The notes under the pieces: model-generated
Database searches by the model: none
Told to the model about the DNA's origin: nothing
What the model saw: only the letters and a program-made list of their open reading frames with translations
In this document: positions 11,027 through 62,354 of the stretch, piece by piece
Layout: each line of letters starts with the position of its first letter
Position numbering within the stretch: the first letter of the stretch is position 1
Translations under genes and position numbers: made by a program
Virus record (IMG/VR): IMGVR_UViG_3300026519_000009
Span: 12,607 to 76,606 of that record
DNA length: 64,000 nucleotides
Reading direction: 5' to 3' (one strand)
DNA from: a virus

Positions 11027-11092
11027 CCAAATAGCCGAAATGCCACCACCAATTCAGCAAGCCGAATTGGTGGTGGCATTTCGGAAAATTAG
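11027..11092. mobile_element. Mini hairpin element, two left ends head-to-head
   Basis: CCGAAATGCCACCACCAATTC-N8-GAATTGGTGGTGGCATTTCGG; both flanks resemble CCAAGTTG; abuts GATAAATA at 11092-11099. Confidence 0.8.
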
Positions 11093-11099
11093 ATAAATA
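11092..11099 (+). promoter_or_regulatory. Putative T4-type late promoter GATAAATA
   Basis: NATAAATA recurs just upstream of structural genes throughout the window; the T4 gp55 consensus is TATAAATA. Confidence 0.65.
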
Positions 11100-11134
11100 T
11101 AATATGCAACATATAAAATAACCGGATATTCTAA

Positions 11135-13153
11135 ATGACTGATAATATTAAAACATTAGACCCAGTACAGGGATTAATTGATTATGTAAATGATGTAAAA
11201 CCATTTCATACTAAAGTTATAGAAACGTTGGTAGAATATGTTGGGTTTGAATCGGTTAATACTACCATAAGTGAACAATACATAATGGAAATCGGGTTAA
11301 ATTATGGATATAATACACCCATAAGCGAATGTATTAATGCGATAGACGGACAAACCATTATTAATACTACGATACCAGTTCGTTCCAATATTACGTTTAT
11401 TGGCAGCCCACCGCTGCAATTATATGATTTTAATGATACTATAGTGTATGTTAATGGCATATTACAAGCGGAGTCATTAGACGGTGGCAGCCCACCCACG
11501 GGTGATTACACTATATCCGGTCCAAATCAAATAACGTTTACCAATCCTCTTATGGATGGTGATGAGGTAAAAATATATACGTTTACACATTTACAACAAG
11601 CACCAGATCAATGCTTGTTGGGTGGGTATGGTACAAATGGATTTGACTTTCCAACTAATATTCCAGTATTGTCGCCTGATATGTCAATATCATTACCGGC
11701 ATTCCCAGCAATTAGCGCCAATACACTAATTGTGTTGGGTGATCAAACAAAATTATTCAATCCAAATAAAAATTTAACGTTTCAATTAAATAGCTATATT
11801 GAAAATCCAATACTTGGAACTATGGTTAGTGATGCTAGCAATACAGGTTCTTTTATTGTAATTAACGCAACGGTAACGCCACGCACACTGGTGACAACAG
11901 AATATACTACCATAACACTTTCCGGTTTGACATTGATACCACCAGCAGTGCCCGCTGATCCAAATGAAAAATATGTTTCCATAATATCACTCGGCGGAAT
12001 ATCATATAACGGTATATTATCCTATAGTAATACCTTCGAGACAATAAATGCTGGTTCGCCACCGAATGAGGTACAAGTGCCGGACGAAGGGCATATATCC
12101 ATACCTATTGTGGGTATTAATGGTGGTTCGCCCGGTTCGTTTGTAATATCTGGTGATTTTAGAGGGAGTAATCTATTTGAACAAGATACCTTTATTGTAT
12201 CAAACTCAATAGGTAATGATGGTACATATGTTATATCTAATATATCATATGATATGGTAATGAATGAAACAACATTAACCACCTCAAGTACTATCACCGA
12301 GTTAACGATTAGTGGAAATATATCGTTAATAATACCGGCAAATGTATTTTTAATTTCAGGCGATTACACAGAATTTTTTAAACAAGGAACGGTAATTCGT
12401 GTACTATCAGGGAGTGTAATTGGTATATACACAACATTAATATCCTTTTTCAACAATAACAAAACATACATTAGGGTATTTGAAGATATTATTAATGATC
12501 CCGGCGCTGATATAATAGGAACAGTTACATCACCCGATGGAATTATAGTGAGCGGTGATCAATCAGGAACATATCTTACAGGTACCGCGTTTAATATATC
12601 GTCATCGCTGTTAAATAATGGTAGCTTTACCACAACCACTAATTCTACATATGATATAATAAATGATGAAACTACAATCCTTGTCAATGAGGCGTTAGAT
12701 ACAACGGATATTACCGGGAATATCCATGAATTTATAAGCGGTAACTTAGAAATCCTATCACCAGGATTTGGACAAACTTCACTTATTTGCGAAGAACTTC
12801 CAGACACTTTAATTAAAATAGGATTCATCGATACTCTTACAGTACAAACTACAACGGGTGGATCACCAAGTATACCAATGTTTCAATATGTTATTATAAA
12901 TACGTCTAATACAATTGGAAGCCCAATAGGCGTGAATTCAATATCAGTGCATGGGGATGCAACAAATGACATTATTAATGGAAACACGATAACTATTATA
13001 CATTCTACTTTTTCACCAAGTAATGATGGAATATATACGATATCATCCAACCCAACATATAATATCGGTGAGAATTTTACAACGTTTAATGTGTTAGAAG
13101 GTATAAATAATGTAGGTAATTCAGGTGGTTGGATTGAAGGAATTTTGCAATAA
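11135..13153 (+). CDS. Virion structural protein with repeated beta-rich modules
   Basis: 672-aa ORF with the same S-x-x-NDG-x-Y modules as the giant protein; late-promoter motif upstream. Confidence 0.65.
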   Translation: MTDNIKTLDPVQGLIDYVNDVKPFHTKVIETLVEYVGFESVNTTISEQYIMEIGLNYGYNTPISECINAIDGQTIINTTIPVRSNITFIGSPPLQLYDFNDTIVYVNGILQAESLDGGSPPTGDYTISGPNQITFTNPLMDGDEVKIYTFTHLQQAPDQCLLGGYGTNGFDFPTNIPVLSPDMSISLPAFPAISANTLIVLGDQTKLFNPNKNLTFQLNSYIENPILGTMVSDASNTGSFIVINATVTPRTLVTTEYTTITLSGLTLIPPAVPADPNEKYVSIISLGGISYNGILSYSNTFETINAGSPPNEVQVPDEGHISIPIVGINGGSPGSFVISGDFRGSNLFEQDTFIVSNSIGNDGTYVISNISYDMVMNETTLTTSSTITELTISGNISLIIPANVFLISGDYTEFFKQGTVIRVLSGSVIGIYTTLISFFNNNKTYIRVFEDIINDPGADIIGTVTSPDGIIVSGDQSGTYLTGTAFNISSSLLNNGSFTTTTNSTYDIINDETTILVNEALDTTDITGNIHEFISGNLEILSPGFGQTSLICEELPDTLIKIGFIDTLTVQTTTGGSPSIPMFQYVIINTSNTIGSPIGVNSISVHGDATNDIINGNTITIIHSTFSPSNDGIYTISSNPTYNIGENFTTFNVLEGINNVGNSGGWIEGILQ

Positions 13154-13163
13154 GGAATATAAT

Positions 13164-13397: not shown

Positions 13398-13455
13398 TTT
13401 TAAAAATGTTTAAGTAAGTCAATTCAAAAACACTTTTTATGGATTAAAAAAATCA

Positions 13456-13463
13456 CATAAATA
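13456..13463 (+). promoter_or_regulatory. Putative late promoter CATAAATA
   Basis: Upstream of GGAG RBS and ORF 13491. Confidence 0.55.
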
Positions 13464-14701: not shown

Positions 14702-14761
14702 TTGAAGCGAGCACTTCCAATTCGGTAAGCTGAATTTGGTTGTGCTCGCCCGGTAATTTAG
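14702..14761 (-). mobile_element. Mini hairpin element (degenerate)
   Basis: Minus strand TTAT|CTAAATTACCGGGCGAGCACAACCAAATTCAGCTTACCGAATTGGAAGTGCTCGCTTCAA, between convergent genes. Confidence 0.75.
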
Positions 14762-14779
14762 ATAATGCGTTAGCAATCG

Positions 14780-17757: not shown

Positions 17758-18777
17758 CGTTGTTAAAATAGTAACAAAATGTAACAAGTGTTTTTTGTTA
17801 CTGATTATTCACAATGTCAACGAGCTTGCCAAGATGATCTTTGGACTGACGGCTCTCTTTTGTGCGTTTTTGGCCTCCTTGCAACGCATGGCGACCATAC
17901 TCTTTTAAATTATTTGCTGCATTAAAATCACGATCCATATTAACACCACAATCACAACTATACAACCGTTCCGACAATGTTAAATCGTTTTTTAATTGTC
18001 CGCAGCCACTACATACCGCGATTGCTTCCTTTCTTCTTTCGTGCCATTTCCGTTGCAACCGTGCCAACCGATTAAGATTGGATTTAAGGCATTGATTAGC
18101 TGGGAAAATTGTCCCATTGCTAATCACTGCCAATTCTTTAATTCCTAAATCAACGCCACCAATTGCTTCGCGGTTATGATCCTGTGGATCATATTCGTTG
18201 GTTTCAACCAAGATCGATGCGAAGTATTTTCCGGCGTGTTTACTAATAGTAACCTGCTTGGTCTGCCCGGCAAATCGTAATCGTTGCCGCATTTTTATCT
18301 TGGTCTTTAACTTTTCAATCCGTAGTTCTCGGCCAGCCACATCAAACTTTTCCGCTTCGCGCAAGGCAAATGAGTCACGAACACCCCGTCGTTTGAATCG
18401 GGAAAAGCCCGGTGTCTGTCCCTTCTTCACCCGACGAAAGAAATGACTAAAGGCATTATCCAAATCATCAATCGCATTGCGCGTAACACGCGATGACACC
18501 TCATTGTACCATGGAAACGTAGGTCTAATAACTCTCATGAAATGCTGATAACCAGCAGCTTTCGACCACTTATTCTCTGGATGACTAAAATGCGCCAGCA
18601 ATTGATTATAGCAATGCCGCCGATGACCACAGGCCATATCCAAATATTGGATATGGCCTGCTGTAGGTCGCAATTCAATTTTGTGTGCTAGTAACATAGT
18701 AGTATTTATCTACAAAATGTAACACGACTTGTTACATTTTGTCAAGTTTAGTTACATTTTAATCAACTGTTGGCAGC
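17758..18777 (-). mobile_element. IS607-like non-autonomous element (tnpB only) inserted at the GG of the nrdB RBS
   Basis: Minus strand: AATAATAA-GG-CTGCCAACAGT...tnpB...TTACTATTTTAACAAC-GG-TAAATCATAATG. Short repeats (AAAATGTAAC/GTTACATTTT) at both ends and no terminal inverted repeats. Confidence 0.7.
17798..18697 (-). CDS. tnpB: TnpB-family protein with an internal in-frame deletion (RuvC-II region absent)
   Basis: HTH-type N-terminus (AHKIELRPT), RuvC-I GVDLGIK, Zn finger CSGCG...CDCG, RuvC-III DRDFNAANNL. The bridge helix runs directly into the Zn finger. Confidence 0.88.
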   Translation of the reverse strand: MLLAHKIELRPTAGHIQYLDMACGHRRHCYNQLLAHFSHPENKWSKAAGYQHFMRVIRPTFPWYNEVSSRVTRNAIDDLDNAFSHFFRRVKKGQTPGFSRFKRRGVRDSFALREAEKFDVAGRELRIEKLKTKIKMRQRLRFAGQTKQVTISKHAGKYFASILVETNEYDPQDHNREAIGGVDLGIKELAVISNGTIFPANQCLKSNLNRLARLQRKWHERRKEAIAVCSGCGQLKNDLTLSERLYSCDCGVNMDRDFNAANNLKEYGRHALQGGQKRTKESRQSKDHLGKLVDIVNNQ

Positions 18778-21487: not shown

Positions 21488-21547
21488 TTGAAGCGACTAC
21501 CACCAAATCAGCAAGCTGAATTTGGAAGTGGTATTCCGGCAACTTGG
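21488..21547 (-). mobile_element. Mini hairpin element
   Basis: Minus strand CCAAGTTGCCGGAATACCACTTCCAAATTCAGCTTGCTGATTTGGTGGTAGTCGCTTCAA. Confidence 0.88.
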
Positions 21548-21552
21548 GTATT

Positions 21553-23094
21553 CTATCTGTGCCAACGTGGATTCCTTGCAATAGGAACACCACGTTCTAC
21601 ACGTCCTACATTCGCATCGTTATAATTATGTTCACTGGAACCCATGTGACTATTGCCAGAATCAAGGTCCGTGGCCGATGCTAGTGTCATTGTCCTTGCC
21701 CATGGTTCATGTTCAGGAACACGGCTGGTTAACCATGCTTCAAGTGTTTCACTGGCGGACATACTGGCCGTTGCAGGTGTTGCGGGTGGGCCATTCAAAT
21801 GTATAGAGGTGCCCGTTACGATCACATCCGCTGCCGCTAATATATTGGTGGTAGCACCCGATTGTAAATTCAACATACCGCCACTCGCGGTAAGATGTAT
21901 ATCGGCAGTGGCCGTTAAAAATAAGTTGGGCATTGATATTCCCATATCACCAATTGAATCAATATTTGTTGACCCATTTGAACGAATATTTAGATTCCCA
22001 CTAGAATGTATTCGCATTTCGCCCTCAGTTGCCAAATGAATACCTTCTTTTGCAGTAACCCTAAATGCGCTGCCTGCCGTAAAATTTATATCCTTCTCGG
22101 CGTGCATCGAAATATTTCCTGCACCATACATATCAATATTTCCATTTTCGTCCATTTCAATCCAAGTGTTACCACCGGCTGTACTAATGTATATCCTTTC
22201 ATTAGTATCATCCATTATTATTTGATGACCATGTGTTGAACGTACACGAATTCTACAATTATCCGCATTATCAGACATTGAATATGAATGGAAGCCAGGT
22301 GTTGTCCAAGAATATACCTGTGGATCGTATACAAATTCGGTGGCACTAGATGCAAGCCCTTCTTGCACCCGACTTCTATTGTATCCCTGAGTGTTATTTA
22401 ATATATTTCCATCTTCTTCAGTGAAGTCAACTTCCTGATCATCTGCAACGCTGGTATAAATAACATCATTATTCGCAATATAAACTGCTGATAATCCAGC
22501 AACACCAACATCGGCACCTCGTGTTCTATATTCAAAATTCTTTCTAGGTGTTGGGATTGCTTGGCCGGTAACTGATTCATATTTTGTGAACGCATTGGTT
22601 TGGCTTGAATACAATGGTTGGATAGGGTCATCCGTTGAACTTAGTGGGCCGGTAGGTTCTTCGTTAGAAGCAGCTGTTTTATTATAAGTATATCGTCCAT
22701 GTGGCATTGTATGTGGAAGAAATTGATCATGCATTGCACCAAGATATATACGAAACCGTGGATCTGCATCAATACACCCCACCAACACGGTTGCCCCCAC
22801 TTTCGGAACATTGAACATACCATAGGCGACCGGGCCAAATGTTCTATCGTCACCACGACCACGACTGGCGGATTCATTAATTCCTGCTAATGGTGAAATT
22901 GGTGTTGCCCAAGGTATATCCTCAACCACAGTATTATTTAGATCACCAAATCGTGGACATGCTACGCGAATCCTACCCATTTGCTGTGGGTCATTTGTAT
23001 CCACGACCTCACCCAATGTTAAGTGATCAAAATTACCATTAGTTGTATTTATTTCATCGAAAATAGACATTACGTTCTTCCAGCTACTGGCCAT
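21553..23094 (-). CDS. Baseplate hub/central spike protein (gp5/VgrG-like)
   Basis: OB-fold start GEVVDTNDPQQMGRIRV, TPGFH/THGHQIIMDD motifs, beta-helix repeats and C-terminal RVPEHEPW. Confidence 0.85.
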   Translation of the reverse strand: MASSWKNVMSIFDEINTTNGNFDHLTLGEVVDTNDPQQMGRIRVACPRFGDLNNTVVEDIPWATPISPLAGINESASRGRGDDRTFGPVAYGMFNVPKVGATVLVGCIDADPRFRIYLGAMHDQFLPHTMPHGRYTYNKTAASNEEPTGPLSSTDDPIQPLYSSQTNAFTKYESVTGQAIPTPRKNFEYRTRGADVGVAGLSAVYIANNDVIYTSVADDQEVDFTEEDGNILNNTQGYNRSRVQEGLASSATEFVYDPQVYSWTTPGFHSYSMSDNADNCRIRVRSTHGHQIIMDDTNERIYISTAGGNTWIEMDENGNIDMYGAGNISMHAEKDINFTAGSAFRVTAKEGIHLATEGEMRIHSSGNLNIRSNGSTNIDSIGDMGISMPNLFLTATADIHLTASGGMLNLQSGATTNILAAADVIVTGTSIHLNGPPATPATASMSASETLEAWLTSRVPEHEPWARTMTLASATDLDSGNSHMGSSEHNYNDANVGRVERGVPIARNPRWHR

Positions 23095-25105: not shown

Positions 25106-25166
25106 CCAAGTTGCCGGAATACTACTTCCAAATTCAACAAGCTGTATTTGGAAGTAGTCGCCTCAC
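25106..25166 (+). mobile_element. Mini hairpin element
   Basis: TTAT|CCAAGTTGCCGGAATACTACTTCCAAATTCAACAAGCTGTATTTGGAAGTAGTCGCCTCA; compensatory CTAC/GTAG stem. Confidence 0.88.
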
Positions 25167-26265: not shown

Positions 26266-26305
26266 TTAGTATCCATTGATAATCATACATTGTATTGTTA
26301 TTTAT

Positions 26306-26751
26306 CCAATTTGCCGGAATACCACTTCCAAATTCAGCTTGGTGAATTTGGAAGTGGATGGATAGGCACCATTAGGACGATCTTGCACTTGTATATATTG
26401 CTTTAATATTTCAATTGGGGCAATAATTAAGTGAATTTAGTTCTTGAATTGATATTTAACTATGGTACACTGTTTATATGAAAAGAGCAATCATTCCCGA
26501 CAAAATAAAGCCATGAAGACTTTAAAAATTCGCGTCAATGACATCAAGCACACGGTTGCCAACAGTATTGAACCAAAGGGGGGGGTTGCGGTTGCCAACA
26601 GTCAATCGGGTGTTGATGGACACAAAACATAAATGATCAACAAAAATAGTAAGTGAAAACGAATTAGTGAAAACACCGAAGACATAATGAGCGACCATTG
26701 TGCGAATCCACGTTCAAGCGCAGATCGCTGATTTGGTGGTGGTCGCTTCAA
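26306..26751 (+). mobile_element. Internally deleted IS200/IS605-type element with tnpB fragments
   Basis: Full left end (hairpin then GGATGGATAGG), ATGAAGACTTTAAAAATTCGCGTC (MKTLKIRV, TnpB-like start), segments matching 47029-47078 and 47408-47448, and right end ...GGTGGTGGTCGCTTCAA. Confidence 0.85.
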
Positions 26752-27338: not shown

Positions 27339-27487
27339 CCAAGTTGTCATTAAAGCGGTTGCCAACGGTCGCCAACTGTGCAATCACTTTTCAATTTTCG
27401 GTGAAATTATTTTAAATTTTTAAAAATTAGTGGAACTTTTTTGAATATACAGCGTCTTTACTATTTTAACAACGTGTGTACGTTCAA
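27339..27487 (+). mobile_element. Degenerate IS605-type mini element interrupted by an IS607-like MITE
   Basis: TTTAT|CCAAGTTG at 27334-27346 and GTTCAA at 27482-27487 flank the nested unit. Confidence 0.5.
27357..27474 (+). mobile_element. 118-bp MITE of the IS607-like element
   Basis: Starts GGTTGCCAAC like the left end at 18766-18778; ends TTACTATTTTAACAACG, 17/17 identical to the reverse complement of 17758-17774. Confidence 0.75.
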
Positions 27488-31079: not shown

Positions 31080-31115
31080 GGTATCCTCGTGTTTATTGAT
31101 TATATTATTATTTAT

Positions 31116-31259
31116 CCAAGTTGCTGAAATACCATTTCCAAATCAACAAGCTGAATTTGGAAATGGATGGATAAGAAGAATTTTGGTTGGATTCCAATTG
31201 AAGCTACCATCACCAAATCGTCTCGCTCATTTGGTGATGGTCGCCAACAGTAGCTTCAA
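31116..31259 (+). mobile_element. Two-hairpin mini element (left end plus right end)
   Basis: TATTTAT|CCAAGTTGCTGAAATACCATTTCCAAAT...ATTTGGAAATGGATGGATAAG, then CCATCACCAAAT...ATTTGGTGATGGTCGC(CAACAGTA)GCTTCAA. Confidence 0.85.
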
Positions 31260-33117: not shown

Positions 33118-33160
33118 TCAAGTTACCGAAATACTACTACTGGTGGTTGGTCGTTTCGAA
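33118..33160 (+). mobile_element. Degenerate mini element (loop deleted)
   Basis: TATTTAT|TCAAGTTACCGAAATACTACTACTGGTGGTTGGTCGTTTCGAA. Confidence 0.65.
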
Positions 33161-33243
33161 CCGTTAATTTGACATTATATATCAATATCGCTTCAATCTT
33201 TTTTTTTATGTATGATAAATATACTAAACTAGGGAATATAATT

Positions 33244-34248: not shown

Positions 34249-34306
34249 CCAATTTGCTGAATCCACTTCCAATTTCAGCTTACTGATTTGGAAGTGATCG
34301 CTTCAA
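34249..34306 (+). mobile_element. Mini hairpin element overlapping the 3' end of ORF 34275-34724
   Basis: TTAT|CCAATTTGCTGAATCCACTTCCAATTTCAGCTTACTGATTTGGAAGTGATCGCTTCAA. Confidence 0.85.
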
Positions 34307-34743: not shown

Positions 34744-34804
34744 CCAAGTTGCCTGAATACTACTTCCAAAGTGGGCTAGCTGAATTTGGAAGCGGTCGCT
34801 TCAA
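34744..34804 (+). mobile_element. Mini hairpin element
   Basis: TTAT|CCAAGTTGCCTGAATACTACTTCCAAAGTGGGCTAGCTGAATTTGGAAGCGGTCGCTTCAA. Confidence 0.88.
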
Positions 34805-35267: not shown

Positions 35268-35331
35268 CCAATTTGCCAAAATACCATCACCCAATTTTGC
35301 AAGCAGAATTTGGTGATGGCATTCGCGTCAA
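35268..35331 (+). mobile_element. Mini hairpin element
   Basis: TATTTAT|CCAATTTGCCAAAATACCATCACCCAATTTTGCAAGCAGAATTTGGTGATGGCATTCGCGTCAA. Confidence 0.8.
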
Positions 35332-37658: not shown

Positions 37659-37718
37659 CTAAATTTCCGAAATGCCACTTCCAAATTTGGTTTGCTGAAT
37701 TGGAAGTGGTCGCGTCAT
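37659..37718 (+). mobile_element. Mini hairpin element
   Basis: CTAAATTTCCGAAATGCCACTTCCAAATTTGGTTTGCTGAATTGGAAGTGGTCGCGTCA, preceded by an IS607-like left-end motif (37646-37658, minus). Confidence 0.8.
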
Positions 37719-38977: not shown

Positions 38978-38992
38978 CCAATTTGACTAAAT
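38978..38992 (+). mobile_element. Left-end fragment of the mini element
   Basis: TTTAT|CCAATTTGACTAAAT. Confidence 0.5.
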
Positions 38993-39160
38993 TTCGGATG
39001 GCTTTCCAAATATTCGTTCAACTGCATGTAAGAACTCCTTTTCGGGGTCTAATGCCCGTGCGAGCATCTCTTCTTGTTCGGGTGTTAATGGTTGGGTTTC
39101 GGTAAATCCCATGTCGGCTAAAACGGTGATAATCGCTGAATCTTGGTTTTCTGTCTTCAT
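38987..39160 (-). CDS. 57-aa hypothetical protein (not in the ORF track)
   Basis: MKTENQDSAIITVLADMGFTETQPLTPEQEEMLARALDPEKEFLHAVERIFGKPSEI; ATG 5 nt after GATAAATA. Confidence 0.55.
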   Translation of the reverse strand: MKTENQDSAIITVLADMGFTETQPLTPEQEEMLARALDPEKEFLHAVERIFGKPSEI

Positions 39161-39172: not shown

Positions 39173-39236
39173 CCAAGTTGTCGGAATACCACCAAATTAG
39201 CAAGCTGAATTTTGAAGTGGTATTCTGGCAACTTGG
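39173..39236. mobile_element. Mini element, two left ends head-to-head
   Basis: TTTAT|CCAAGTTGTCGGAATACCAC...GTGGTATTCTGGCAACTTGG|ATAAA. Confidence 0.88.
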
Positions 39237-40985: not shown

Positions 40986-41044
40986 CCAAGTTGCTGGAAT
41001 ACCACTTCCAAATCGGCGATCTGATTTGAAACCGACCACTTCAA
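40986..41044 (+). mobile_element. Mini hairpin element
   Basis: TTTAT|CCAAGTTGCTGGAATACCACTTCCAAATCGGCGATCTGATTTGAAACCGACCACTTCAA. Confidence 0.82.
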
Positions 41045-42990: not shown

Positions 42991-43057
42991 CCAAGTTGCA
43001 GCAATACCACTTCCGATTTCAGCTTGCCGATTTGGAAATGGTATTGCTACAATTTGG
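42991..43057. mobile_element. Mini element, two left ends head-to-head
   Basis: TATTTAT|CCAAGTTGCAGCAATACCACTTCC...GGAAATGGTATTGCTACAATTTGG. Confidence 0.82.
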
Positions 43058-44542: not shown

Positions 44543-44571
44543 AGATACATTCCATAAGTAGTTGAATTAAA

Positions 44572-44913
44572 TTGAAGTGACCACCATCAAATCAGCGAGC
44601 TGTGTTTGGTGGTGGATTCGCACAACGGTCGCCCATTGTGTTTTCTGCATTTCCACAGACCCCTGCTAGTAGCGCTTGGTTTCCCAAGCTGAGAATGTTC
44701 GTTGCTACATTTACATTGCAATCATGCATTGTTTCACACCCGGAGCATGTACATTCTCTTATTCCAAGACCTGAACTACCTTACTGATAATAACATAGTT
44801 AAATGTCAAGTCAAGAATTAAATTCACTTAATCATTGTGTGTTTAATATGTTGCCTGTCCAACCACCATCAAATCAGCACGATGATTTGATGGTGGTTGG
44901 ACAGGCAACTTGG
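44572..44913 (-). mobile_element. IS200/IS605-type element reduced to left end, promoter, tnpB 3' tail and right end
   Basis: Minus-strand 44572-44780 aligns by eye with 47280-47482; left end TATTTAT|CCAAGTTGCCTGTCCAACCACCATCAAAT. Confidence 0.88.
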
Positions 44914-45274
44914 ATAAATATTCAATAACAGCCTCTTCGTCTATTGTTAGTGATCCACTTGCATTGGCGCGGCGCAACGTAGTTTCAAAGGTCATTATCA
45001 TTTCTTTTGAGTTTATATATTCTAATATGATTTCACACGCGGCGCGTGTGAAATCATATTGTGAATTGTCCTCATCATGTTTGTAGTCAATTGCCAACGC
45101 CGCCATAAACATGATATTTTGTACCACTGGCACCGTGGTTGGCATTAAAGTGAACCATCCAGGATCATTTTTAATAAAATTGGTGTATAAAATTTTATCA
45201 TCATCCGTTAATGGCACGCAGCTTGACATTTGTTTAACAAATCGTTCTTCATATGTTTTTTGCAATGCAGTCAT
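44843..45274 (-). CDS. Hypothetical protein whose C-terminus is encoded by the element left end
   Basis: Last ~23 codons (SKLPVQPPSNH...) lie inside the element. Confidence 0.6.
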   Translation of the reverse strand: MTALQKTYEERFVKQMSSCVPLTDDDKILYTNFIKNDPGWFTLMPTTVPVVQNIMFMAALAIDYKHDEDNSQYDFTRAACEIILEYINSKEMIMTFETTLRRANASGSLTIDEEAVIEYLSKLPVQPPSNHRADLMVVGQATY

Positions 45275-45393
45275 ATTATATCCGATAGTTGCATTTTGAA
45301 TATGAATATATTGTAAACTATTACAATATATTATTCAATGGTTTTGGACTATATATTTCACTTGTTCTACTAGATTCCAATAAAATCCATTAT

Positions 45394-45453
45394 CCAAGTT
45401 GCCGAAATACCACTACCAAATCAGCAAGCTGAATTTGGAAATGGTCGCTTCAA
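45394..45453 (+). mobile_element. Mini hairpin element (near consensus)
   Basis: TTAT|CCAAGTTGCCGAAATACCACTACCAAATCAGCAAGCTGAATTTGGAAATGGTCGCTTCAA. Confidence 0.9.
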
Positions 45454-46752: not shown

Positions 46753-46764
46753 ATTGATATTTAT

Positions 46765-47482
46765 CCAAGTTGCCGAAATACCACTTCCAAATTCACGTGG
46801 TCGGTGGTATCTTTCGGTTCAAGTACTTGTTGACAAACAAGTATCAACTGGCACCGGACATATAGGAATTGACTTGGGGTTAAAGACCATTGCTACGTGT
46901 TCAAATGGCGAAATATTAGAACGTAAGGAATATTATCGTAAATCCGAAAGCAAGTTGGGCATTGCCCAACTTGCAAAAAAGAAACGCCAAGTAAAAACAA
47001 TTCATGCGAAAATCAAGAACCAACGGATGGACACAAATCATAAATGGTCAACCAAGATAGTAAAAGAAAAACGAATTAATAGCGATTGGTAATGTTAGTG
47101 CGTCTAAATTAGCAAAGACTAAGATGGCTAAATCCGTATTAGACGCAGGTTGGTATCAACTAAAGAACATGCTCGATTATAAATCGAAAGCGATGCGATG
47201 CATGTTTGTTGAAGTCAACGAATCGTACACCACCCAGACCTGTTCGTCGTGTCAGGAAATAACTGAAACGAGTCCGAAAGGTAGGACAGGTCTTGGAATA
47301 AGGGAATGGACGTGTTCCGGGTGTGGCACATTGCATGATCGTCATATCAATGCAGCAACGAACATTCTCCGCTTGGGAAGTCAAGCGCTCGATGGAGGAG
47401 TCTGTGGAAACACAGAAGACACAATGGGTGACCATTATGCGAATCCACTTCCAAATCAAAGATTTGGAAGTGGTCGCTTCAA
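46765..47482 (+). mobile_element. IS200/IS605-family element remnant (longest copy)
   Basis: TTTAT|CCAAGTTGCCGAAATACCACTTCCAAATTC left end, then tnpB remnant, then right end GCGAATCCACTTCCAAATCAAAGATTTGGAAGTGGTCGCTTCAA. Confidence 0.92.
46795..47400 (+). pseudogene. tnpB: tnpB pseudogene (5' truncated, frameshifted)
   Basis: RGRWY...GIDLGLK (RuvC-I); frameshift near 47070; then AKSVLDAGW...VNESYTTQTCSSC...WTCSGCGTLHDRHINAA (RuvC-III Asp changed to His). Confidence 0.9.
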
Positions 47483-47506
47483 CAGTAATAATAAAGGAAA
47501 CGGCTA

Positions 47507-47719
47507 ATGCCTACATATCAATATAAATGTTCAAATAAAAAGTGTGACATTCATAATGTTATTATAGAAGTAAAGCAAAAAATGACTGAAGAACCATTAC
47601 AAATATGCCCCGACTGTTCTGAACCTACCTTAACAAAAAGGATATCAGGCGGTGGTGGATTCCGCATAGGTGGCCAAGGCGTTCATAAACCAACCGCACA
47701 CTGGGGTGATCTAAGCTAA
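47507..47719 (+). CDS. FmdB-family zinc-ribbon protein
   Basis: MPTYQYKC...C...CPDC...KRIS...F..GG.G. Confidence 0.88.
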   Translation: MPTYQYKCSNKKCDIHNVIIEVKQKMTEEPLQICPDCSEPTLTKRISGGGGFRIGGQGVHKPTAHWGDLS

Positions 47720-47989: not shown

Positions 47990-48545
47990 TTAACATTCGT
48001 GTAATATCCATAATACAGAAGTGATGATCAAGCCCCCAATTTGGGCACTATTGTTGCACATCACCAACAATTCGATGTACGTTGCCCAATTTATCGAAAG
48101 ACGTTGAGGTTAGTCCATTGTTAGGTAGATTTTTATATTTACCAGAAGGTAGAAAACAAACATGCTGTAGTGTTCCAGTTTTCAAACGCTATGGTGGTAG
48201 TTCCCCACTAGGCCCGCGAAACCCCCCGTGACCGGCCTGGATAGATATATATCTATCCGAACGGAGGGGGGCCAGCTCTCATGGTTTTAAATGGTTAAAA
48301 AAAATAATTTAATAATGAATGTTTATTAGTTCTTTCTGCCTTGCGAGGCTTTATCCGCAAGGCAGAAGAATAATTGATATTACATTTTCGCGCCTTGGTG
48401 CGAAGATTATAGATAATCCATTATTACGTTATTATATTATTATGGAAATTGAAAATGTAGGCAATAATTGCAAAAAATGTGGTTTTGTTGTTGTCATGTC
48501 CCATTCATAACATTGGCACCAGACAAGTGCTTTCACGCAAGCGCT
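47990..48545. other. Long structured non-coding region (possible ncRNA or origin)
   Basis: No credible ORF. GC-rich stems at 48190-48275, perfect palindrome 48239-48258, hairpin 48334-48367. Confidence 0.4.
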
Positions 48546-48547: not shown

Positions 48548-48562
48548 TTGAACGCAACTTGG
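48548..48562 (-). mobile_element. Hairpin-less 15-bp remnant of the mini element
   Basis: Minus strand TTTAT|CCAAGTTGCGTTCAA. Confidence 0.65.
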
Positions 48563-48654: not shown

Positions 48655-50253
48655 ATGAATAATAAATCAAAAATATTTGAATCATGGCCCACGCCAGAAT
48701 TCACACCTCGTACAAATCAAATAATTGCATTGGAATGGATTGAAAAACAAACCGCAAAATATTTGATTTTGGAAGCACCGGTTGGTAGTGGAAAATCACA
48801 TACAGCACTTACATTTGCAACCTCTATATCAACACATCTAAAACACTCATTTGTATTAACACCACAGATAATTTTACAACAGCAATATGAAGTTGACTTT
48901 AAAAAAAATGGTAGTGCATTTTTAGCATCATTGCGTGGTAAATCAAATTATAAGTGTATTAATAAAAAAACATCATGTAATGTTGGTTCTTTAGTCAAAC
49001 CAAAATGTGCTGTCTGCCCCTATATTAAAGCAAAACAACGGGCATTATACTCCAAAAATACGGTTCTTAATTACAAGTTGGCACTAACTACCTTCACGTA
49101 TACAGATACGTTTGCAAAACGAAAGCTATTAATAATGGACGAAGCACATACCCTTGAGCGACATTTAGTTGATTTTGATTCCGTTGATATCAAATCTTTT
49201 ATATGCGAGAAATACAATATTAAATTTAAAGTTAATACTAATATTAAATCAGCAAAAGAATGGGTAACAAAAGAATATTTACCTAACATACAAGACGCAT
49301 TAAATACACTTGAAGAAGATAGTGAATATTTATATGAAAAAACAGGAGCAGAAATAACAAAAAAGGAATTAAAATTATTATCAGAAATTGATGAATTAAG
49401 CGCACATGTGAATGATGTTTTGGAATTGTCAATACGAAATGTTAAGTATTTAGAAAAACACTTCGTACTAGTACACGATAAAACGATGATTCAATTTAAA
49501 CGTATTACAGGCGCGTATTCATTTAAAAAAATATTTGAACCACAAGCTGAACGTTTTTTATTCATGTCCTCAACCATATTAAATAAAAACCAATTCTGTG
49601 CAGACTTAGGTATTGATGAAAAAGATACCGCGTTTTTATCACTTGAAAGTGACTTCCCTGTTGAAAACAGGCCAATATATTATATGCCCATTTTAAAAAT
49701 GAATGCTGCTTGGAACAAACCAGAACAAGCAAATGGTAGAAAACAAATGATTACCAGAATATGCGAACTGCTTGATATTCATAAAACCGAGTCGGGAATA
49801 ATCCACACAGCAAATTATCAAATAGCAATATGGTTAGTACAGGAACTTTCGAAGTTAAAGTCACACGACATTTATCATCATAATCCAAAAACCAAGCATA
49901 ATCGAAATACCACAATTGATATGTTTATAGAGTCAACCGTACCATCTATTCTTATAAGCCCATCATGTACCGAAGGACTTGACCTAAAAGATGATTTGTC
50001 ACGGTTCGCAATGATTGTTAAGACACCGTTTGGATACTTAGGTGACCAGTGGATAAAGAAACGGTTAGATATGTCGGCTGAATGGTACAGGCGCAGAGCT
50101 ATGACCGATATCATACAAGCTGGTGGACGAATTGTGAGAAGTTCAAATGATAGTGGCACAGTATATATTCTGGACGGTAGCTTTGGATACCTATATTCGC
50201 AGTCATCTTCCATGATACCAAAATGGTGGAAAGATTCATTAGTGTTTATGTAG
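48655..50253 (+). CDS. DinG/YoaA-like SF2 helicase
   Basis: APVGSGKS, Cys cluster, DEAH, EGLDL and QAGGRIVRS..D.G..YILD. Confidence 0.92.
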   Translation: MNNKSKIFESWPTPEFTPRTNQIIALEWIEKQTAKYLILEAPVGSGKSHTALTFATSISTHLKHSFVLTPQIILQQQYEVDFKKNGSAFLASLRGKSNYKCINKKTSCNVGSLVKPKCAVCPYIKAKQRALYSKNTVLNYKLALTTFTYTDTFAKRKLLIMDEAHTLERHLVDFDSVDIKSFICEKYNIKFKVNTNIKSAKEWVTKEYLPNIQDALNTLEEDSEYLYEKTGAEITKKELKLLSEIDELSAHVNDVLELSIRNVKYLEKHFVLVHDKTMIQFKRITGAYSFKKIFEPQAERFLFMSSTILNKNQFCADLGIDEKDTAFLSLESDFPVENRPIYYMPILKMNAAWNKPEQANGRKQMITRICELLDIHKTESGIIHTANYQIAIWLVQELSKLKSHDIYHHNPKTKHNRNTTIDMFIESTVPSILISPSCTEGLDLKDDLSRFAMIVKTPFGYLGDQWIKKRLDMSAEWYRRRAMTDIIQAGGRIVRSSNDSGTVYILDGSFGYLYSQSSSMIPKWWKDSLVFM

Positions 50254-50255
50254 TG

Positions 50256-50277
50256 TTGAATAATTCAGGCAACTTGG
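50256..50277 (-). mobile_element. Hairpin-less 22-bp remnant of the mini element
   Basis: Minus strand TTTAT|CCAAGTTGCCTGAATTATTCAA. Confidence 0.7.
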
Positions 50278-50292
50278 ATAAAGGAAAAAAAA

Positions 50293-50598
50293 ATGCGAAG
50301 CATATTAAAATTAATGTTACAGATTGTCGCGTATGCAGTAATAGTGATGTTAACAGTATATTGGATATCGGCAGAACAACTAAACTACATTCTTATTGAA
50401 ATACCAACATTAATATTTGATACGTTGGTTAAGTTAATGCCGACTAATGGCCACGAATCAACAACAGTTGACGTTGCGTTAATGGGGATATACACATTCC
50501 TTGCACTAACCTTACCCGTTCTTTGGTGGTTATTTGTATTTTTTACACCATTTATGCTATTACGTAATGTTTCCAACAAATATATTAATGGTTGTTGA
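50293..50598 (+). CDS. Membrane protein
   Basis: Two hydrophobic segments; AAGGA RBS. Confidence 0.65.
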   Translation: MRSILKLMLQIVAYAVIVMLTVYWISAEQLNYILIEIPTLIFDTLVKLMPTNGHESTTVDVALMGIYTFLALTLPVLWWLFVFFTPFMLLRNVSNKYINGC

Positions 50599-50658
50599 AG
50601 CGCCACACACCACCAAATCAGCAAGTTGAATTTGGTGGTGTGGTAGTGGTAACTTCAA
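50595..50658. mobile_element. Mini element with TTCAA-type ends on both sides
   Basis: TTGAAGCGCCACACACCACCAAATCAGCAAGTTGAATTTGGTGGTGTGGTAGTGGTAACTTCAA. Confidence 0.8.
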
Positions 50659-52286
50659 TTCGTCCAATGTAGTTTTACTTTTCCACTATCCCATATAGTA
50701 TCGTAACCAATTGATTCAAGGATTTTGGATTTACTTAAATGTGCGGGATGCCCCTTCGCCACTAAATCTTTTTTAGATATAAACCTCCGATGTTGTCGAT
50801 TTGTGTAATCTGTCCACCATAATGCCGGTTTAGTATATCCGACACGCACAAATCCAATATGTTGTTTTACCAGTCCGGTAAACCAACGTCGATCAACATA
50901 TGCTATTATTTCATTATATCCAAAGGTGCGTATTGCATGTTTGAACATTTTAGACCCCAGGCCGGGATTATTTTTTTTATTAGTAACAAACCGCTTTAAT
51001 TCCACCACACTCGAATCGCCATGTTCATTATTGGTCTGCCCAAATACCATTACGCCAATTAAATTATCATTATTATCATAAGCACCAATTCGTTTATTTC
51101 CACAGCTTCCTGCATTCAATAAATGATATTGATTTAAAAATTTCCTAGCGGTAGGCCAATTAATTTCACGAATAGTAGTATTTCGTGCGTATACGCCCTT
51201 TTTACTCCGATTCATTAAATGTAGTAAGGTATCTTTGCATTTTTGTTGTTGATCACGCCATTCATCCTCAAATATATGAATAAGACGAATTCCTTGCGCT
51301 TCGCATAATTGGGTCTTGTTCAAATGATAGTTAGAATCCTTACCTTGTGCTGTAGAATGATAATACAAACCATTATATTCTATTGCTAACTTATATTGCG
51401 GAATATATATGTCCAACTCCAAGCCAATTATCTTTTTTGTGTTCGTTACAATATCAATTCCTAATGATTCTATCCATGTTGCAATATCGCGTTCCGCAAT
51501 TGATCGTGAATGTGTAATTGTCGCAATTTTATGTTTCTTAAAATATGTGGTAATTGTATCATTACATACCCCTAATCCAAGTGCAATTTGTCCAATTGTT
51601 TGCTTATGTACATTATGTTGTTCGGTTAACCATTCCTTATTTAATAAAAATACCATTGCTTCTTTGTTTTGATTAGCATGTTCGGTGCCATATCGGTGCC
51701 ATGATGTTTCTTTTATTTTATCTCGTATCGCATTATTTTGAAAAACATTTTCAACACCATATCTCATTAAATTAGTATTCCTAAGAGTTTCCATAACAAT
51801 AGGTGATTTGAGTGGGACGGTAACGCCGAAATTTCGTTTACATGTATCCTTTTTTCTGTTTTTTATTTCGTCAAGTTGTGAAATATTATCCACACCATAT
51901 TTTTGCTGAACCGTTACTTTTGCTTTTTCCTGTACTTTTTTGTTACCGAATGGTGATTCTGAACCATATTTTTTTAAGTTAGTTTCTTTGATTTTTTTCA
52001 TTCTTTTTGGATTTAACATAGCACATTTGACGGAGCAACATTCACGATAATCGCCGCCTTTTAGTTTGTTCCATGTCGCATCATTGCCACATACCACACA
52101 ACTTGGTAGCGAATATATATTGTTAGTAACATGCCAAATGCGCTGTTTTATACTAGCAGTTTTGGGTAAAAAAGCAGTTAATGTAAGCAATGCTGGATAT
52201 TGATCATGATATATTAATGCACCCAAACGCTTTAAAGATTTTGCGTGTTCTATTAAATCCGAAATTTCATTTTTTTTTGTCACCAT
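50655..52286 (-). CDS. Hef-like homing endonuclease-type protein (KYG repeats, PD-(D/E)xK/Vsr-like domain, acetyltransferase-like C-terminus)
   Basis: T...[KR]YG repeats; ELDIYIP..KLAIEYNGLYYH...LIHIFEDEW; ELKRF...YVDRRW...IWDSG. Confidence 0.8.
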   Translation of the reverse strand: MVTKKNEISDLIEHAKSLKRLGALIYHDQYPALLTLTAFLPKTASIKQRIWHVTNNIYSLPSCVVCGNDATWNKLKGGDYRECCSVKCAMLNPKRMKKIKETNLKKYGSESPFGNKKVQEKAKVTVQQKYGVDNISQLDEIKNRKKDTCKRNFGVTVPLKSPIVMETLRNTNLMRYGVENVFQNNAIRDKIKETSWHRYGTEHANQNKEAMVFLLNKEWLTEQHNVHKQTIGQIALGLGVCNDTITTYFKKHKIATITHSRSIAERDIATWIESLGIDIVTNTKKIIGLELDIYIPQYKLAIEYNGLYYHSTAQGKDSNYHLNKTQLCEAQGIRLIHIFEDEWRDQQQKCKDTLLHLMNRSKKGVYARNTTIREINWPTARKFLNQYHLLNAGSCGNKRIGAYDNNDNLIGVMVFGQTNNEHGDSSVVELKRFVTNKKNNPGLGSKMFKHAIRTFGYNEIIAYVDRRWFTGLVKQHIGFVRVGYTKPALWWTDYTNRQHRRFISKKDLVAKGHPAHLSKSKILESIGYDTIWDSGKVKLHWTN

Positions 52287-55847: not shown

Positions 55848-57284
55848 TTATTTATCTAAATTACCAATAATGCTCTCATTTATTTGTAATTGGATATCAC
55901 GTGGTCGCCAGTGTTTATAATCCCACGCAAAGGCATCTGCACATACAATATTATGATTTATGATTGTTCGATATTCATCTTTATTGCCAACTAAATCCAA
56001 AATCCGCTCCTTACAATGTTCAATATTATCGGGCATAATATCCAGTCCATATACAGCATTTAAGGTATCTACGGTAGAACAACCGGATTCGATCTTACGT
56101 GAAATAACTTCCACTAAAAAATTACCATTACCACAAGATGGTTCTAACACAGTCTGATTAGTGCTAAAAGCATTATTCTCCTCCAATTTATTCATAATAT
56201 CATCAATATAATATGAAGGTGTAAATATTTCACCCGTTCGTTTCACCCGTTCAAGTGAACGGGTGATTTTATTAACGGTAGTGTCATGTTTTAGACTAAT
56301 TAATTTTCCATCTTTTTTTCCATCTATTACTTGTTCATCCGCCGCATATCGCCAACCTACCAATTTTATCCATTCGATTAATTTTTTTGAGAACCCTTTT
56401 TTTTGATAATATGCACGTTCATACTCTTCTTTACTATCGTATTTATCCTGCAATACATCATATGGCAGTTTACCTATTGTATAGTCACTGACATGTGAAA
56501 TAGTGTTAGTCATACTTAATAATAAACCAAAAACACGCATCGATAAGTGAAAAAAAGTGTTTTTTGCTAAATGTTCTTCATTTTTATTAAACTCAAGCAT
56601 ATACCGTTTTGCGCTATTACTTTTTTTGTCCACCTTATCTTTTTTTGTAGTTGGCACCCAAGGATTGCTACCATCGAGGTCTAATTGTACACCCGTCAAT
56701 AGGCTGCGTCCTGTTAGATTAGCTAATGATTTAGATGTTCCTAGGTATGCTAGGTCTAATTTACTATTAAAATGAACTTTAGGCTTGTCCGAATTGGTGT
56801 ATGGTATTAATGGTATGGTGGGCACCCCCAAATTGGTAACACCGCAGATATTCCATAACTCCTTACCTTCATCGCCTATAAATAATGGGGTTCCTTGTGC
56901 TGACATATTAGTTGTGGTATAGTATGGTATATCATTAAAATACCGACACAGTTCAATTTCATCATTTTGCCGACTTCCATTCTTTAATATTATACATGCA
57001 CCAATAGCCTTAATTGGTTTATCGTTAACCGGATCAAAAAAAACACCAGCAGGGTATGTGAATAAATGCGTTATATTAGTATTATTACTTAATATTTCCC
57101 GCACTTCTTTATTACGGTGGGCACCGCCATTTAAGTAACTTGCTGACGTTATTATTGCCATTAATCCATTTTTTTTCAATAATTTTTGTTTAATTTGTAG
57201 TAAAAATTTAAGATCAATCCCACGATCCCAAGGCACATTGCCTACTACAATATCAAATTCACCCATTTCGTTCGACAAGTTCAA
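55848..57284 (-). CDS. Amino-DNA methyltransferase with permuted motif order
   Basis: N-terminal FDIVVGNVPW (motif IV-like); C-terminal GEIFTP...VLEPSCGNGNFL...YGLDI (motifs X, I, II). Confidence 0.78.
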   Translation of the reverse strand: MNLSNEMGEFDIVVGNVPWDRGIDLKFLLQIKQKLLKKNGLMAIITSASYLNGGAHRNKEVREILSNNTNITHLFTYPAGVFFDPVNDKPIKAIGACIILKNGSRQNDEIELCRYFNDIPYYTTTNMSAQGTPLFIGDEGKELWNICGVTNLGVPTIPLIPYTNSDKPKVHFNSKLDLAYLGTSKSLANLTGRSLLTGVQLDLDGSNPWVPTTKKDKVDKKSNSAKRYMLEFNKNEEHLAKNTFFHLSMRVFGLLLSMTNTISHVSDYTIGKLPYDVLQDKYDSKEEYERAYYQKKGFSKKLIEWIKLVGWRYAADEQVIDGKKDGKLISLKHDTTVNKITRSLERVKRTGEIFTPSYYIDDIMNKLEENNAFSTNQTVLEPSCGNGNFLVEVISRKIESGCSTVDTLNAVYGLDIMPDNIEHCKERILDLVGNKDEYRTIINHNIVCADAFAWDYKHWRPRDIQLQINESIIGNLDK

Positions 57285-57453: not shown

Positions 57454-57512
57454 TTGTGTGAACACCACAAAATTCAGATTTCTGATTTGGTGGTGATATT
57501 CCAGTAACTTGG
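57454..57512 (-). mobile_element. Mini hairpin element
   Basis: Minus strand TATTTAT|CCAAGTTACTGGAATATCACCACCAAATCAGAAATCTGAATTTTGTGGTG. Confidence 0.82.
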
Positions 57513-59111: not shown

Positions 59112-59170
59112 CCAAGTTGCCTGAATACCATCACCAAATCAGCGAGATGAATTTGAAAGTGGCAACTTTA
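59112..59170 (+). mobile_element. Mini hairpin element
   Basis: TTAT|CCAAGTTGCCTGAATACCATCACCAAATCAGCGAGATGAATTTGAAAGTGGCAACTT, between convergent terL and neck genes. Confidence 0.82.
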
Positions 59171-62100: not shown

Positions 62101-62263
62101 CACTATCAATGCCGGATGCACAACCTAACGCAGGCCCGGGTATATTCCATTCGATTGTTCCTTGACCAGCCGCTGGACATCCTTGCTTAAAGGATAATTT
62201 AATCTCTTGTCCTTCTGTTCGTAACGCATTTGCTGTATCAGCAATTGGATCAAACACACCCAT
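59168..62263 (-). CDS. Neck protein (T4 gp13-like C-terminal domain) with a long Trp-repeat extension
   Basis: LGYPVVEVELT..QID and IRGKFASLPGAGGGISLN motifs; about ten P...W[FY]DT....L..W.G..W repeats. Confidence 0.85.
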   Translation of the reverse strand: MGVFDPIADTANALRTEGQEIKLSFKQGCPAAGQGTIEWNIPGPALGCASGIDSVYAGIVLLLSSTPLDATNIPQDGVTYISDPTADFDLSTADRIGTALVVGAFYECEKKCNGEPFTMSVIINDLQPNTTYYVAGYAVDCQTRYHADGVRAYSDKFGNIQTDVPATQIINLGNAGGGVLPTDGTGLIPGIDYEFDIIIDDKFAQPNTHKTVEFIADGINLGTYQDLIDEINRQILLVGNPLQSPLPPNADSFFWDVTKQELFQFDGTVYNSIPVLIEPTDPSNITVGGYWYDTTNKILNRWNVPTPTGFNVIPFIESETDPTAPACGLYWFDNNIAREWNGTTWCEQVTLSSATDPSDCPTVPCGTHWYDENINELLVWNVDDTQWNTTNAIFWPQAPNQLLNGTYWFNDTNSTLSIRNAGVWNDITTTVIFQEIEPTSPTDGLLWFNPVTEELREYSATSPNGFVLLSVLFWPEDPTDITSCELWWDSNADLLYTWDSINLSWTLVSNFIQSLLDPAEPAPIIVNTIWNDTINNILLRWDGGDWVTVTSIFRSTDPTQVALGEAWFMPSTNTWRIWDTPAMGWNIVDPIDSATDPTNIPTGVYWFDTSNNALFVRNGLMWTNMIFSTVPFNPVRGSHWYDTASEVLNTWNGSAWVAAIPCAIAAFNENGGITFSTTGLGSDHAILIPASESAISSTSTCSIGTGFAYAGVNDVAGTQCEFLNNGLVTTYPTRDIPDNSFLWNQLSIIPNILTPIPGNDGKTGIPSYLELGVGTDGTPDERRELADSIRQQLGYPVVEVELTNSQIDIAISRALESFRKRSSASVRRGFYFLNIEPKKQQYLLTNKTMGYNKIVNVMAAFRFNSAFLSSAAGAGVYGQVVLQHLYNMGTYDLTSFFLVSQYIEQLEDLFATRLTFGWHENERILSFYSSFVRPERVLLDCMIERTEQDLLKDRLIKTWLERYALAESMMMLSHIRGKFASLPGAGGGISLNSSELMSLAQSYRDELMQQIDDFVVDTPEDVGQVGTFILG

Positions 62264-62295
62264 ATTAAACTCCAGTTAAATATGGTAGTATTTAT

Positions 62296-62354
62296 CCAAG
62301 TTGACTAAATACCATCTCTAAGTAAATGCACTTACTTAGAGATGCGGGCGACAA
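62296..62354 (+). mobile_element. Mini element with a divergent but intact stem
   Basis: TATTTAT|CCAAGTTGACTAAATAC-CATCTCTAAGTAA-N6-TTACTTAGAGATG-CGGGCGACAA. Confidence 0.7.

Follow-up and report, generated by a model that had tools for sequence, protein, structure and literature searches.

The 64,000-nt window analyzed here, bases 12607 to 76606 of a 76.6-kb virus record in IMG/VR (IMGVR_UViG_3300026519_000009; CheckV completeness, 24%), is populated by a family of short hairpin repeats that are most probably non-autonomous, PATE-like derivatives of a single IS605-type element with the order left end (LE), tnpA (reverse), tnpB, right end (RE). A PATE-like family of an IS608-like element is an already known kind of repeat; what is new is the dominance of a single-hairpin, 60-bp form, its residence in a jumbo phage at ∼1 copy per 2.4 kb of contig, and its clustering at the edge of a promoter-like box. 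The original prediction had traced these repeats to IS200/IS605 elements, a derivation that is supported by tnpB remnants recognizable with Pfam, a TnpA gene within a copy of the family on a sibling contig, the IS608-like anatomy of the ends, and the existence of empty sites in related phages.

The stem word CCACTTCCAAAT occurs 21 times with at most one mismatch, against 0.47 occurrences expected. In the orientation of the element, the unit reads TTAT / CCAAGTTGCCGGAATA / 12-nt stem, loop with an inner 3-bp stem, 12-nt stem / TCGCTTCAA, and its minimal form of 58 to 64 bp comprises a 16-nt LE, one 12- to 15-bp hairpin, and a 9-nt RE that ends in TCAA. Similarity between the copies stops sharply at CCAAG on one side and at TTCAA on the other, and TTAT precedes 28 of the 33 left ends. 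No flanking duplication is seen in the alignment of the copies, in line with the earlier claim that the target is not duplicated. The stem covaries, with 9 of the 15 pairs altered on both sides, a value that was reached by 0 of 500 shuffles; slid controls collapse. A covariance model (CM) was built from the alignment of 18 copies and run with filters off, counting loci at E values of ≤0.01. It recognized 24 distinct loci in the window and, counting 8 others from the 12.6 kb of contig that lie upstream, 32 in 76.6 kb, as well as ∼8 and ∼9 loci (∼17 together) in two sibling contigs, G002 and G003, that carry the repeat family. Even at an E value of ≤0.1, no repeat was detected in the whole of the complete 363.5-kb relative G004, in the 61.7-kb relative G005, or in four further relatives. 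Among the 25 copies originally listed, 21 starts correspond to strong CM matches, and those at 27339, 38978, 48548, and 50256 are short remnants matched by their ends only. The proposed consensus, the presence of copies on both strands, and the density of about one copy per 2 kb were all correct, and the size series of 718, 446, 342, 144, ∼60, and 15 to 22 bp was reproduced. Across the window's own contig (G000) and the two siblings, 19 units are built as LE(16)-hairpin-RE(9), keeping both insertion sequence (IS) ends and no gene. Judging from the copy coordinates, the family takes up ∼5% of the sampled contig. No Rfam family matched the window at the gathering score (the 46.7- to 48.7-kb region gave only a chance miRNA match), and a known RNA family was rejected.

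Three long copies had been predicted to enclose tnpB sequence, and all of them do. ORF (open reading frame) fragments of copy 46765 match PF01385 (OrfB_IS605; 4.6e-10) and PF07282 (Cas12f1-like TNB; 2.6e-21), and copies 44572 and 26306 resemble copy 46765 at the nucleotide level. Contig positions 3059 to 3723, outside the window, hold another internally deleted copy, whose tnpB part is 93% identical to that of copy 46765. As for TnpA, none had been noticed in the window, and a Y1 transposase is indeed absent from the whole 76.6-kb contig. An apparently intact, IS608-like enzyme of this type is encoded inside a copy of the family on the sibling contig G002, where an uninterrupted 159-aa ORF on the reverse strand (positions 49915 to 50394) matches the Y1_Tnp domain (PF01797; 6.6e-40). 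The best match of this protein among solved structures is the IS608 TnpA (7e-22), with the HUH motif (HIH) and the helix bearing the catalytic Tyr aligned, and the nearest TnpA in the protein collection is 64% identical to it. The blocks that flank the gene exactly show 94% and 85% identity to window positions 26298 to 26422 and 26421 to 26557, respectively. Since these two blocks, separated by tnpA in G002, are joined in copy 26306, the latter is a tnpA-deleted derivative. Put together, these pieces point to a parent element with the order LE, tnpA (reverse), tnpB, RE, whose copy in G002 is cut off by the end of the contig.

Two features of the longer copies deserve mention in their own right. 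In G002 (positions 49915 to 49990; L057), the tnpA frame reads through the LE hairpin and ends at a TAA from the flanking TTAT target, which gives this TnpA a tail ∼20 aa longer than those of its relatives (132 to 139 aa). The mid-sized derivatives (window positions 46.7 to 47.5, 44.57 to 44.78, and 26.6 to 26.75 kb; L009:1621-1851; L061:3520-3775) retain 60 to 210 nt immediately upstream of the RE hairpin; this stretch, in which a TnpB omega RNA would be expected, holds a conserved CTGTG-GAAA-CACAG stem-loop. The TnpA and TnpB of the family make up a compact pair whose target motif is predicted to be TTAT.

The ends of the element can be compared position by position with those of IS608 (ISHp608) from Helicobacter pylori, in which the left cleavage site TTAC lies 19 nt 5′ of the left hairpin, the right cleavage site, TCAA, is found 10 nt 3′ of the right hairpin, and the respective guides are AAAG and GAAT (PMC3201880, PMC5934647). 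The spacing in the phage element is similar: TTAT, 16 nt, and the hairpin at LE, and the hairpin followed by 9 nt ending in TCAA at RE. The LE hairpin is preceded by AATA, and in 5 of 5 long copies the tetranucleotide before the RE hairpin is GAAT. The TTAT/AATA pair retains the position-wise pairing of TTAC/AAAG in IS608, with a double change at the fourth position, and GAAT next to the RE hairpin accompanies TCAA exactly as it does in IS608, so that the predicted guides fit in sequence at both ends. Subterminal hairpins are found at both ends of the long copies, and the ends themselves (CCAAG... and ...TTCAA) are not mutual inverted repeats. The phage element shares with IS608 the Y1 HUH TnpA, the tnpB passenger, the subterminal hairpins without inverted terminal repeats, the insertion 3′ of a tetranucleotide without duplication, and the identical right cleavage site and predicted right guide. 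It differs in the target (TTAT, not TTAC), in the left guide (AATA, not AAAG), in having LE and RE hairpins of nearly the same sequence, and in the phage nature of its replicon; in addition, tnpA is located on the strand opposite to tnpB, as in IS605 and IS606 but unlike in IS608. With such ends, TnpA supplied in trans could be expected to cut the top strand after TTAT and after TCAA, with the 4 nt 5′ of the hairpin foot (AATA at LE and GAAT at RE) serving as guides, as in IS608, and the resulting single-strand circle would be inserted 3′ of TTAT.

Comparison with related phages identified sites in which the element is missing. The window encodes a large terminase, a head-tail adaptor, a baseplate hub, tail fibers, a ribonucleotide reductase, a DnaB-like helicase, and a 3,674-aa ORF. 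Its relatives by gene content, which show 50 to 83% amino acid identity, include the complete 363.5-kb genome, so the window comes from a jumbo phage, as had been proposed. G004 and G005 were both compared with the window contig. At site 25106, the genes on either side are neighbors in 16 of 16 relatives, with a spacer of 17 to 20 nt versus 114 nt in the window; at site 40986, both flanks align pairwise to G004, and the window contains ∼55 to 60 extra nucleotides. Upstream of 8 of the 11 G004 genes that are orthologous to element-preceded genes of the window, the heptanucleotide ATAAATA is found at the same distance from the start codon (within 0 to 3 nt in the seven cases with a defined G004 start, e.g., 23 versus 23 and 6 versus 5), and in those 8 cases the left end in the window directly abuts the ATAAATA box. 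Given that the element-free G004 carries the box at the same distance, the box must be older than the insertion, and the junction reads TATTTAT| on the top strand of the element. These data bear out the expectation of empty alleles ending at TTAT, with the left junction at TTAT| in 8 of 8 resolvable promoter-like sites. Absence of empty alleles, or displaced junctions, had been named as observations that would speak against transposition; empty sites exist and the left junctions fall in place, with the right junction resolved at one site.

No near match to the window was found among the GenBank phages. A scan of IMG/VR with the left-end pattern returned three other records, one of them G002, which have in common with the window only the repeats and the element interior. 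Orthologues in G000, G002, and G003 cover adjoining, non-overlapping parts of the G004 map: for instance, the 311- to 314-kb segment corresponds to G000, 314 to 317 kb to G003, 317 to 320 kb to G002, and 320 to 329 kb to G000 again. Such tiling fits a single genome or population whose assembly was broken at the repeats. The metagenome protein scan produced no match, and the metagenome scan with the LE-interior pattern recovered only G002's own contig. A bacterial host or donor was also sought; the sole LE-pattern match among genome representatives, in a Gemmatales metagenome-assembled genome, has no hairpin and was discarded as a chance match.

Most copies occupy the same position with respect to the gene downstream. 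In the direction of that gene, the order is stop codon, hairpin, GGTATTCCGGCAACTTGG (...CAACTTGG), ATAAATA, 6 to 36 nt, and start codon, with the sequence GATAAATA next to the element. The box resembles the T4 late promoter TATAAATA. Within 70 nt upstream of start codons, ATAAATA is biased toward the sense strand (79:23 in G004 and 16:5 in G005), with a peak at 20 to 40 nt, and no constraint is visible at the base before it (T 24, A 13, C 13, G 11). As many as 16 of 33 left ends are located at TATTTAT, versus ∼8% of the intergenic TTAT sites in G004 (binomial p, 1e-9), and ∼70% of the ATAAATA boxes upstream of genes in the window contig carry an element. Those copies that face the 3′ end of a gene (21488, 14702, 43057, 59112, and 39236) are flanked only by TTAT, TTAC, or ATAC. 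The elements are oriented according to the gene strand around them, down to small gene blocks, because the TTAT target is the reverse complement of the start of the asymmetric ATAAATA box; an insertion at that edge therefore dictates which way the element points with respect to the gene, and the box is not disrupted. The original prediction had not noticed this location of the target in a promoter-like motif. Transposition of IS608 and ISDra2 follows a lagging-strand rule, and a replication-strand bias was considered as the cause of the orientation. It was rejected, as the orientation switches with every small gene block, as exemplified by copies 57454 (−), 59112 (+), and 62296 (+). In a genome that is 91% coding, only intergenic insertions would be expected to survive, and those at the upstream edge of ATAAATA would keep the box intact, so that copies would accumulate there, all oriented alike with respect to the gene.

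The same arrangement could be produced if the unit were, or had become, a regulatory cassette of the phage, similar to the PeSL promoter/stem-loop cassettes of T4-like phages, coupled to ATAAATA and maintained by selection, with the hairpin acting at the RNA or DNA level as a terminator, processing site, stabilizer, or protein-binding site. The prevailing order from stop codon to start codon would suit such a role, as would the agreement of orientation with the gene strand, the compensatory changes in the stems, and the high occupancy of the boxes. Nevertheless, this explanation appears quite improbable and is not needed. Relatives that share these genes and their ATAAATA boxes manage without the element, the asymmetric target already accounts for the orientation, approximately 7 copies face the 3′ end of a gene or nothing at all, and many stems have decayed or are chimeric. 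A cassette would have no use for the sharp TCAA boundary or for the long copies bearing tnpA or tnpB. Furthermore, the family hairpins lack a T tract and none was called terminator-like, whereas canonical terminators are found beside some copies. Two more specific candidates were rejected. An intrinsic terminator does not agree with the 24- to 44-kb region, in which no family hairpin was called terminator-like and the stem is followed, in gene orientation, by TATTCCGG with no T tract. An ancestral promoter/terminator system of the phage family does not agree with the lack of any copy in the complete G004 or in five other relatives.

The minimal units, or minis, are best explained under the preferred reading, IS605-type transposition, as products of recombination between the near-identical LE and RE hairpins, which in some cases would clearly have occurred in place. 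Minis 21488 and 14702, and those at position 6064 of G003 and position 22719 of G002, combine the 5′ arm of one stem variant with the 3′ arm of another, and the long copy 26306 has LE and RE hairpins of exactly such unlike variants. At least part of the mini population was therefore formed in place by recombination of LE with RE. Inverted exchange at the hairpin also occurs, as seen in the palindromic LE-hairpin-LE′ copies 11027, 39173, and 42991. Minis 25106, 35268, and 62296 have fully compensated variant stems, a state compatible with descent from variant masters as well as with repair in place. Some minis look as if they were dead on arrival. Compared in pairs, 36 copies are on average 69% identical, the two most similar minis reach 88%, and the closest pairs of all (90 to 97%) are formed by copies with a long LE, including the tnpA-bearing copy. 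The original prediction held that the two hairpins had merged into one minimal unit that kept spreading; the merger is supported by the chimeric stems, and the continued spread, although possible, is weakened by these same stems, by the age of the copies, and by the at most 88% identity of the minis. For mobilization in trans by TnpA, the sequence evidence is mixed, with many sites at TTAT on the one hand and old copies and some chimeric stems on the other.

These signs of recombination raise the alternative that the copies were spread and reshuffled mainly by homologous or hairpin-centered events (gene conversion, template switching, or PeSL-like shuffling), with few TnpA insertions. Both the palindromic LE-hairpin-LE′ and RE′-hairpin-RE forms and the chimeric stems indicate frequent recombination at the hairpin, and near-identical minis are missing. 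G004 and G005 are mutually colinear, and the window is heavily reshuffled relative to both; among 47 consecutive orthologue pairs, an element is present in the gap at 17 of 23 synteny breaks versus 7 of 24 colinear junctions (Fisher p, 0.003). This enrichment is suggestive only, the test being confounded by the larger gaps at broken junctions. However, recombination leaves unexplained the 28 of 33 left ends that abut TTAT at many unrelated loci, as well as single-element insertions between genes that remain adjacent, and it is very unlikely to have been the main route of spread. Once inserted by TnpA, the repeats could still have acted as homology for inversions and reshuffling.

Several points weigh against deriving the family from TnpA-driven transposition of the reconstructed parent. 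An intact tnpB of the repeat family was not seen, the G002 contig stopping 137 bp into the gene, and no TnpA was found in the window's own contig; that G002 belongs to the same genome is suggested by complementary coverage. The metagenome scans revealed no closer relative with presence/absence polymorphism of the copies, and the right-end junction is resolved at a single site, 40986. The excess of left ends at TATTTAT could reflect target preference or survival, which are indistinguishable in sequence. ATAAATA is a putative promoter, suggested by where the boxes lie, by their strand bias, and by their likeness to the T4 late box. Finally, the copies are old and diverged, with no sign of recent movement.

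A more far-reaching reading, which as a whole appears unlikely, would make the 60-bp unit a working minimal transposon that uses one hairpin as both ends. In that case, GGAATA 5′ of the hairpin foot would hold the overlapping guides GAAT (for TCAA) and AATA (for TTAT), and the unit would represent a living intermediate between PATEs and REPs. TATTTAT, as the extended target, would correspond to the template strand of the phage late promoter box, so the element would home to promoters and rebuild a tolerated NATAAATA box. If this were true, copies with tnpB and the omega RNA might add RNA-guided homing between co-infecting phages.

Among the individual copies in the window, the simplest minis are those at 34249 to 34306 (+; CM score, 71.4 bits), 34744 to 34804 (+; 73.6 bits), and 45394 to 45453 (+; 84.5 bits, the best match to the model). 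The mini at 25106 to 25166 (+; 81.7 bits) lies between two genes that are adjacent in all relatives. The mini at 40986 to 41044 (+; 67 bits), upstream of the DnaB-like helicase gene, has both flanks aligned to the empty site in G004, and another, at 57454 to 57512 (−; 65.3 bits), precedes the large terminase gene. The mini at 35268 to 35331 (+; 66.9 bits) has the compensated stem variant CCATCACC/GGTGATGG, and that at 37659 to 37717 (+; 63 bits) has a degenerate LE and no TTAT flank. Of the chimeric units, the LE-hairpin-RE mini at 14702 to 14765 (−; 64 bits, and by alignment) joins stem arms of unlike variants, and the one at 21488 to 21547 (−; 79.5 bits) is situated at a synteny breakpoint, with ATAC instead of TTAT as its left flank. 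The copy at 59112 to 59170 (+; 61.6 bits) lies between convergent genes, with its LE facing the 3′ end of a gene and a TTAT flank without the rest of the box. The copy at 62296 to 62357 (+; 60.3 bits) combines a conserved LE with a fully different yet self-complementary stem. Three palindromic copies, with no strand assigned, are recognized by the model on both strands: LE, hairpin, and inverted LE at 11027 to 11092 (64 and 63 bits; fold of −26 kcal/mol, z −10; the matching G004 junction is 17 nt), the same arrangement at 39173 to 39236 (−21.5 kcal/mol, z −7.4), and the copy at 42991 to 43057.

The longest derivative, of 718 bp (46765 to 47482, +), consists of LE with half of the hairpin, a broken tnpB in two frames (46754 to 47092 and 47124 to 47507), and RE. 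The 446-bp derivative (26306 to 26751, +) comprises LE, the 3′ end of tnpA, the start of tnpB, and RE, with tnpA and most of tnpB deleted. The 342-bp derivative (44572 to 44913, −) retains the last ∼210 nt of tnpB and RE; the model matches at 44569 and 44851, there is a trace of PF07282, and it is 79% identical to positions 47278 to 47482. The 144-bp composite (31116 to 31259, +; CM matches at 31112 to 31177 and 31196 to 31240) has LE, the hairpin, and LE interior, followed by a second hairpin flanked on both sides by RE-like sequence. A hairpin with RE-like sequence on both sides is also found at 50595 to 50658 (no strand assigned; 39.8 bits). The remaining copies are decayed. The copy at 33118 to 33196 (+; CM E value, 0.0027) has retained its LE and RE ends and lost the hairpin, and the corresponding spot in G005 reads TATAAATA. 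The remnant at 27339 to 27401 (+) consists of the first 12 nt of LE and a TCAA-type end, with an exact CAACTTGGATAAATA, no family hairpin, and no CM match. At 38978 to 39012 (+), there is a weak LE remnant (CM E value of 0.073 only); at 48548 to 48562 (−), a 15-bp remnant joins the start of LE to the end of RE without a hairpin; and at 50256 to 50277 (−), a 22-bp remnant consists of 16 nt of LE and TTCAA (CM E value, 0.014).

Several other features of the contig were noticed. An uninterrupted 299-aa ORF at window positions 17798 to 18697 (−), preceded by a sigma-70-like promoter, encodes a TnpB-like protein that belongs to another family (HTH_OrfB_IS605, OrfB_IS605, and TNB domains; PHROG transposase, 3e-53); the block in which it is located, from 14.8 to 21.2 kb, has no counterpart at that place in the relatives. 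On the contig upstream of the window, a homologue of the ribosomal protein bS21 (L085:2435-2650, +; PF01165, 1.6e-15) lies directly upstream of the C-terminal fragment of a TnpB-like gene of a different family (L085:2654-2998; PF07282, 5e-11). A second repeat of ∼110 nt (GGATTTTATTGGAATCTAGTAGA...TTGTAATGGTTTACAATATAT...), found at L085:2920-3040 and at window positions 45274 to 45390, trails this fragment and recurs beside element 45394; it may be the end of the other TnpB-like element. The motif GTTGCCAACAG occurs at 26555, 26591, 27358, 31240, 37647, and 18767 (6 occurrences versus 0.8 expected), and most of its copies are inside or adjoining the hairpin elements, as if inserted into them. 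A non-coding stretch of ∼400 nt (∼47990 to 48400, +) with many complementary segments is conserved in G004 and G005, flanked there by the same two genes; Rfam gave only a chance miRNA match for it, and it may be a structured RNA of the phage. Finally, Mom-family/REase-like and N6-methylase/Eco57I-like domains are encoded at 50655 to 52286 (−) and 55848 to 57284 (−); the former has no G004 orthologue, and the orthologue of the latter lies elsewhere on the G004 map.

Insertion sequences are usually almost absent from phage genomes, as nearly every base is coding, and no described case of PATEs or miniature inverted-repeat transposable elements in phage genomes was found in the literature. The present family of single-strand transposons has settled at most copies of one promoter-like box in a packed phage genome. 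It provides a natural case for studying how a mobile element finds safe sites, how small an IS200/IS605 substrate can get, and whether repeats drive the reshuffling of gene order relative to colinear genomes.

PATEs are gene-less IS200/IS605 derivatives described in haloarchaea, cyanobacteria, and Geobacillus (PMC3119063; PMC10055086). The phage family resembles them in being non-autonomous and protein-free, in keeping the IS ends, in reaching many copies per genome, and in its presumed mobilization in trans by TnpA. It differs in being mostly single-hairpin, in residing in a jumbo phage, and in having its sites clustered at one promoter-like motif. To our knowledge, the 58- to 64-bp single-hairpin form is smaller than the described PATEs. 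REP elements are short, single-hairpin intergenic repeats with a conserved 5′ tetranucleotide that are linked to a Y1 HUH enzyme, RAYT. The phage units share with them all of these features, the tetranucleotide and the link to a Y1 HUH enzyme included. However, the phage enzyme groups with the IS608 TnpA, its best match among solved structures, the units keep the IS ends (TTAT outside and TCAA inside), and the deletion series leads to an element with tnpA and tnpB. A domesticated single-copy RAYT flanked by REPs was not found in contigs that sample about half of the genome, the only Y1 enzyme being the one beside the start of tnpB between IS ends. Of the REP/PATE-like label applied to these repeats in the original prediction, the PATE part is appropriate, given the retained IS ends and the lack of genes, and the REP/RAYT part finds no support in the sampled half, where the sole Y1 enzyme lies within an IS copy. 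PeSLs, the promoter/stem-loop cassettes of T4-like phages (PMC2839356, PMC4122927), are likewise repeated intergenic modules of a promoter and a hairpin in large myoviruses, located at the borders of shuffled gene modules. In contrast to the phage family, they have no transposase ancestry and contain early promoters, whereas the promoter-like box next to the phage repeats predates the element and is not carried by it. By position, the PeSLs of T4 are the nearest phage analogue of this family.

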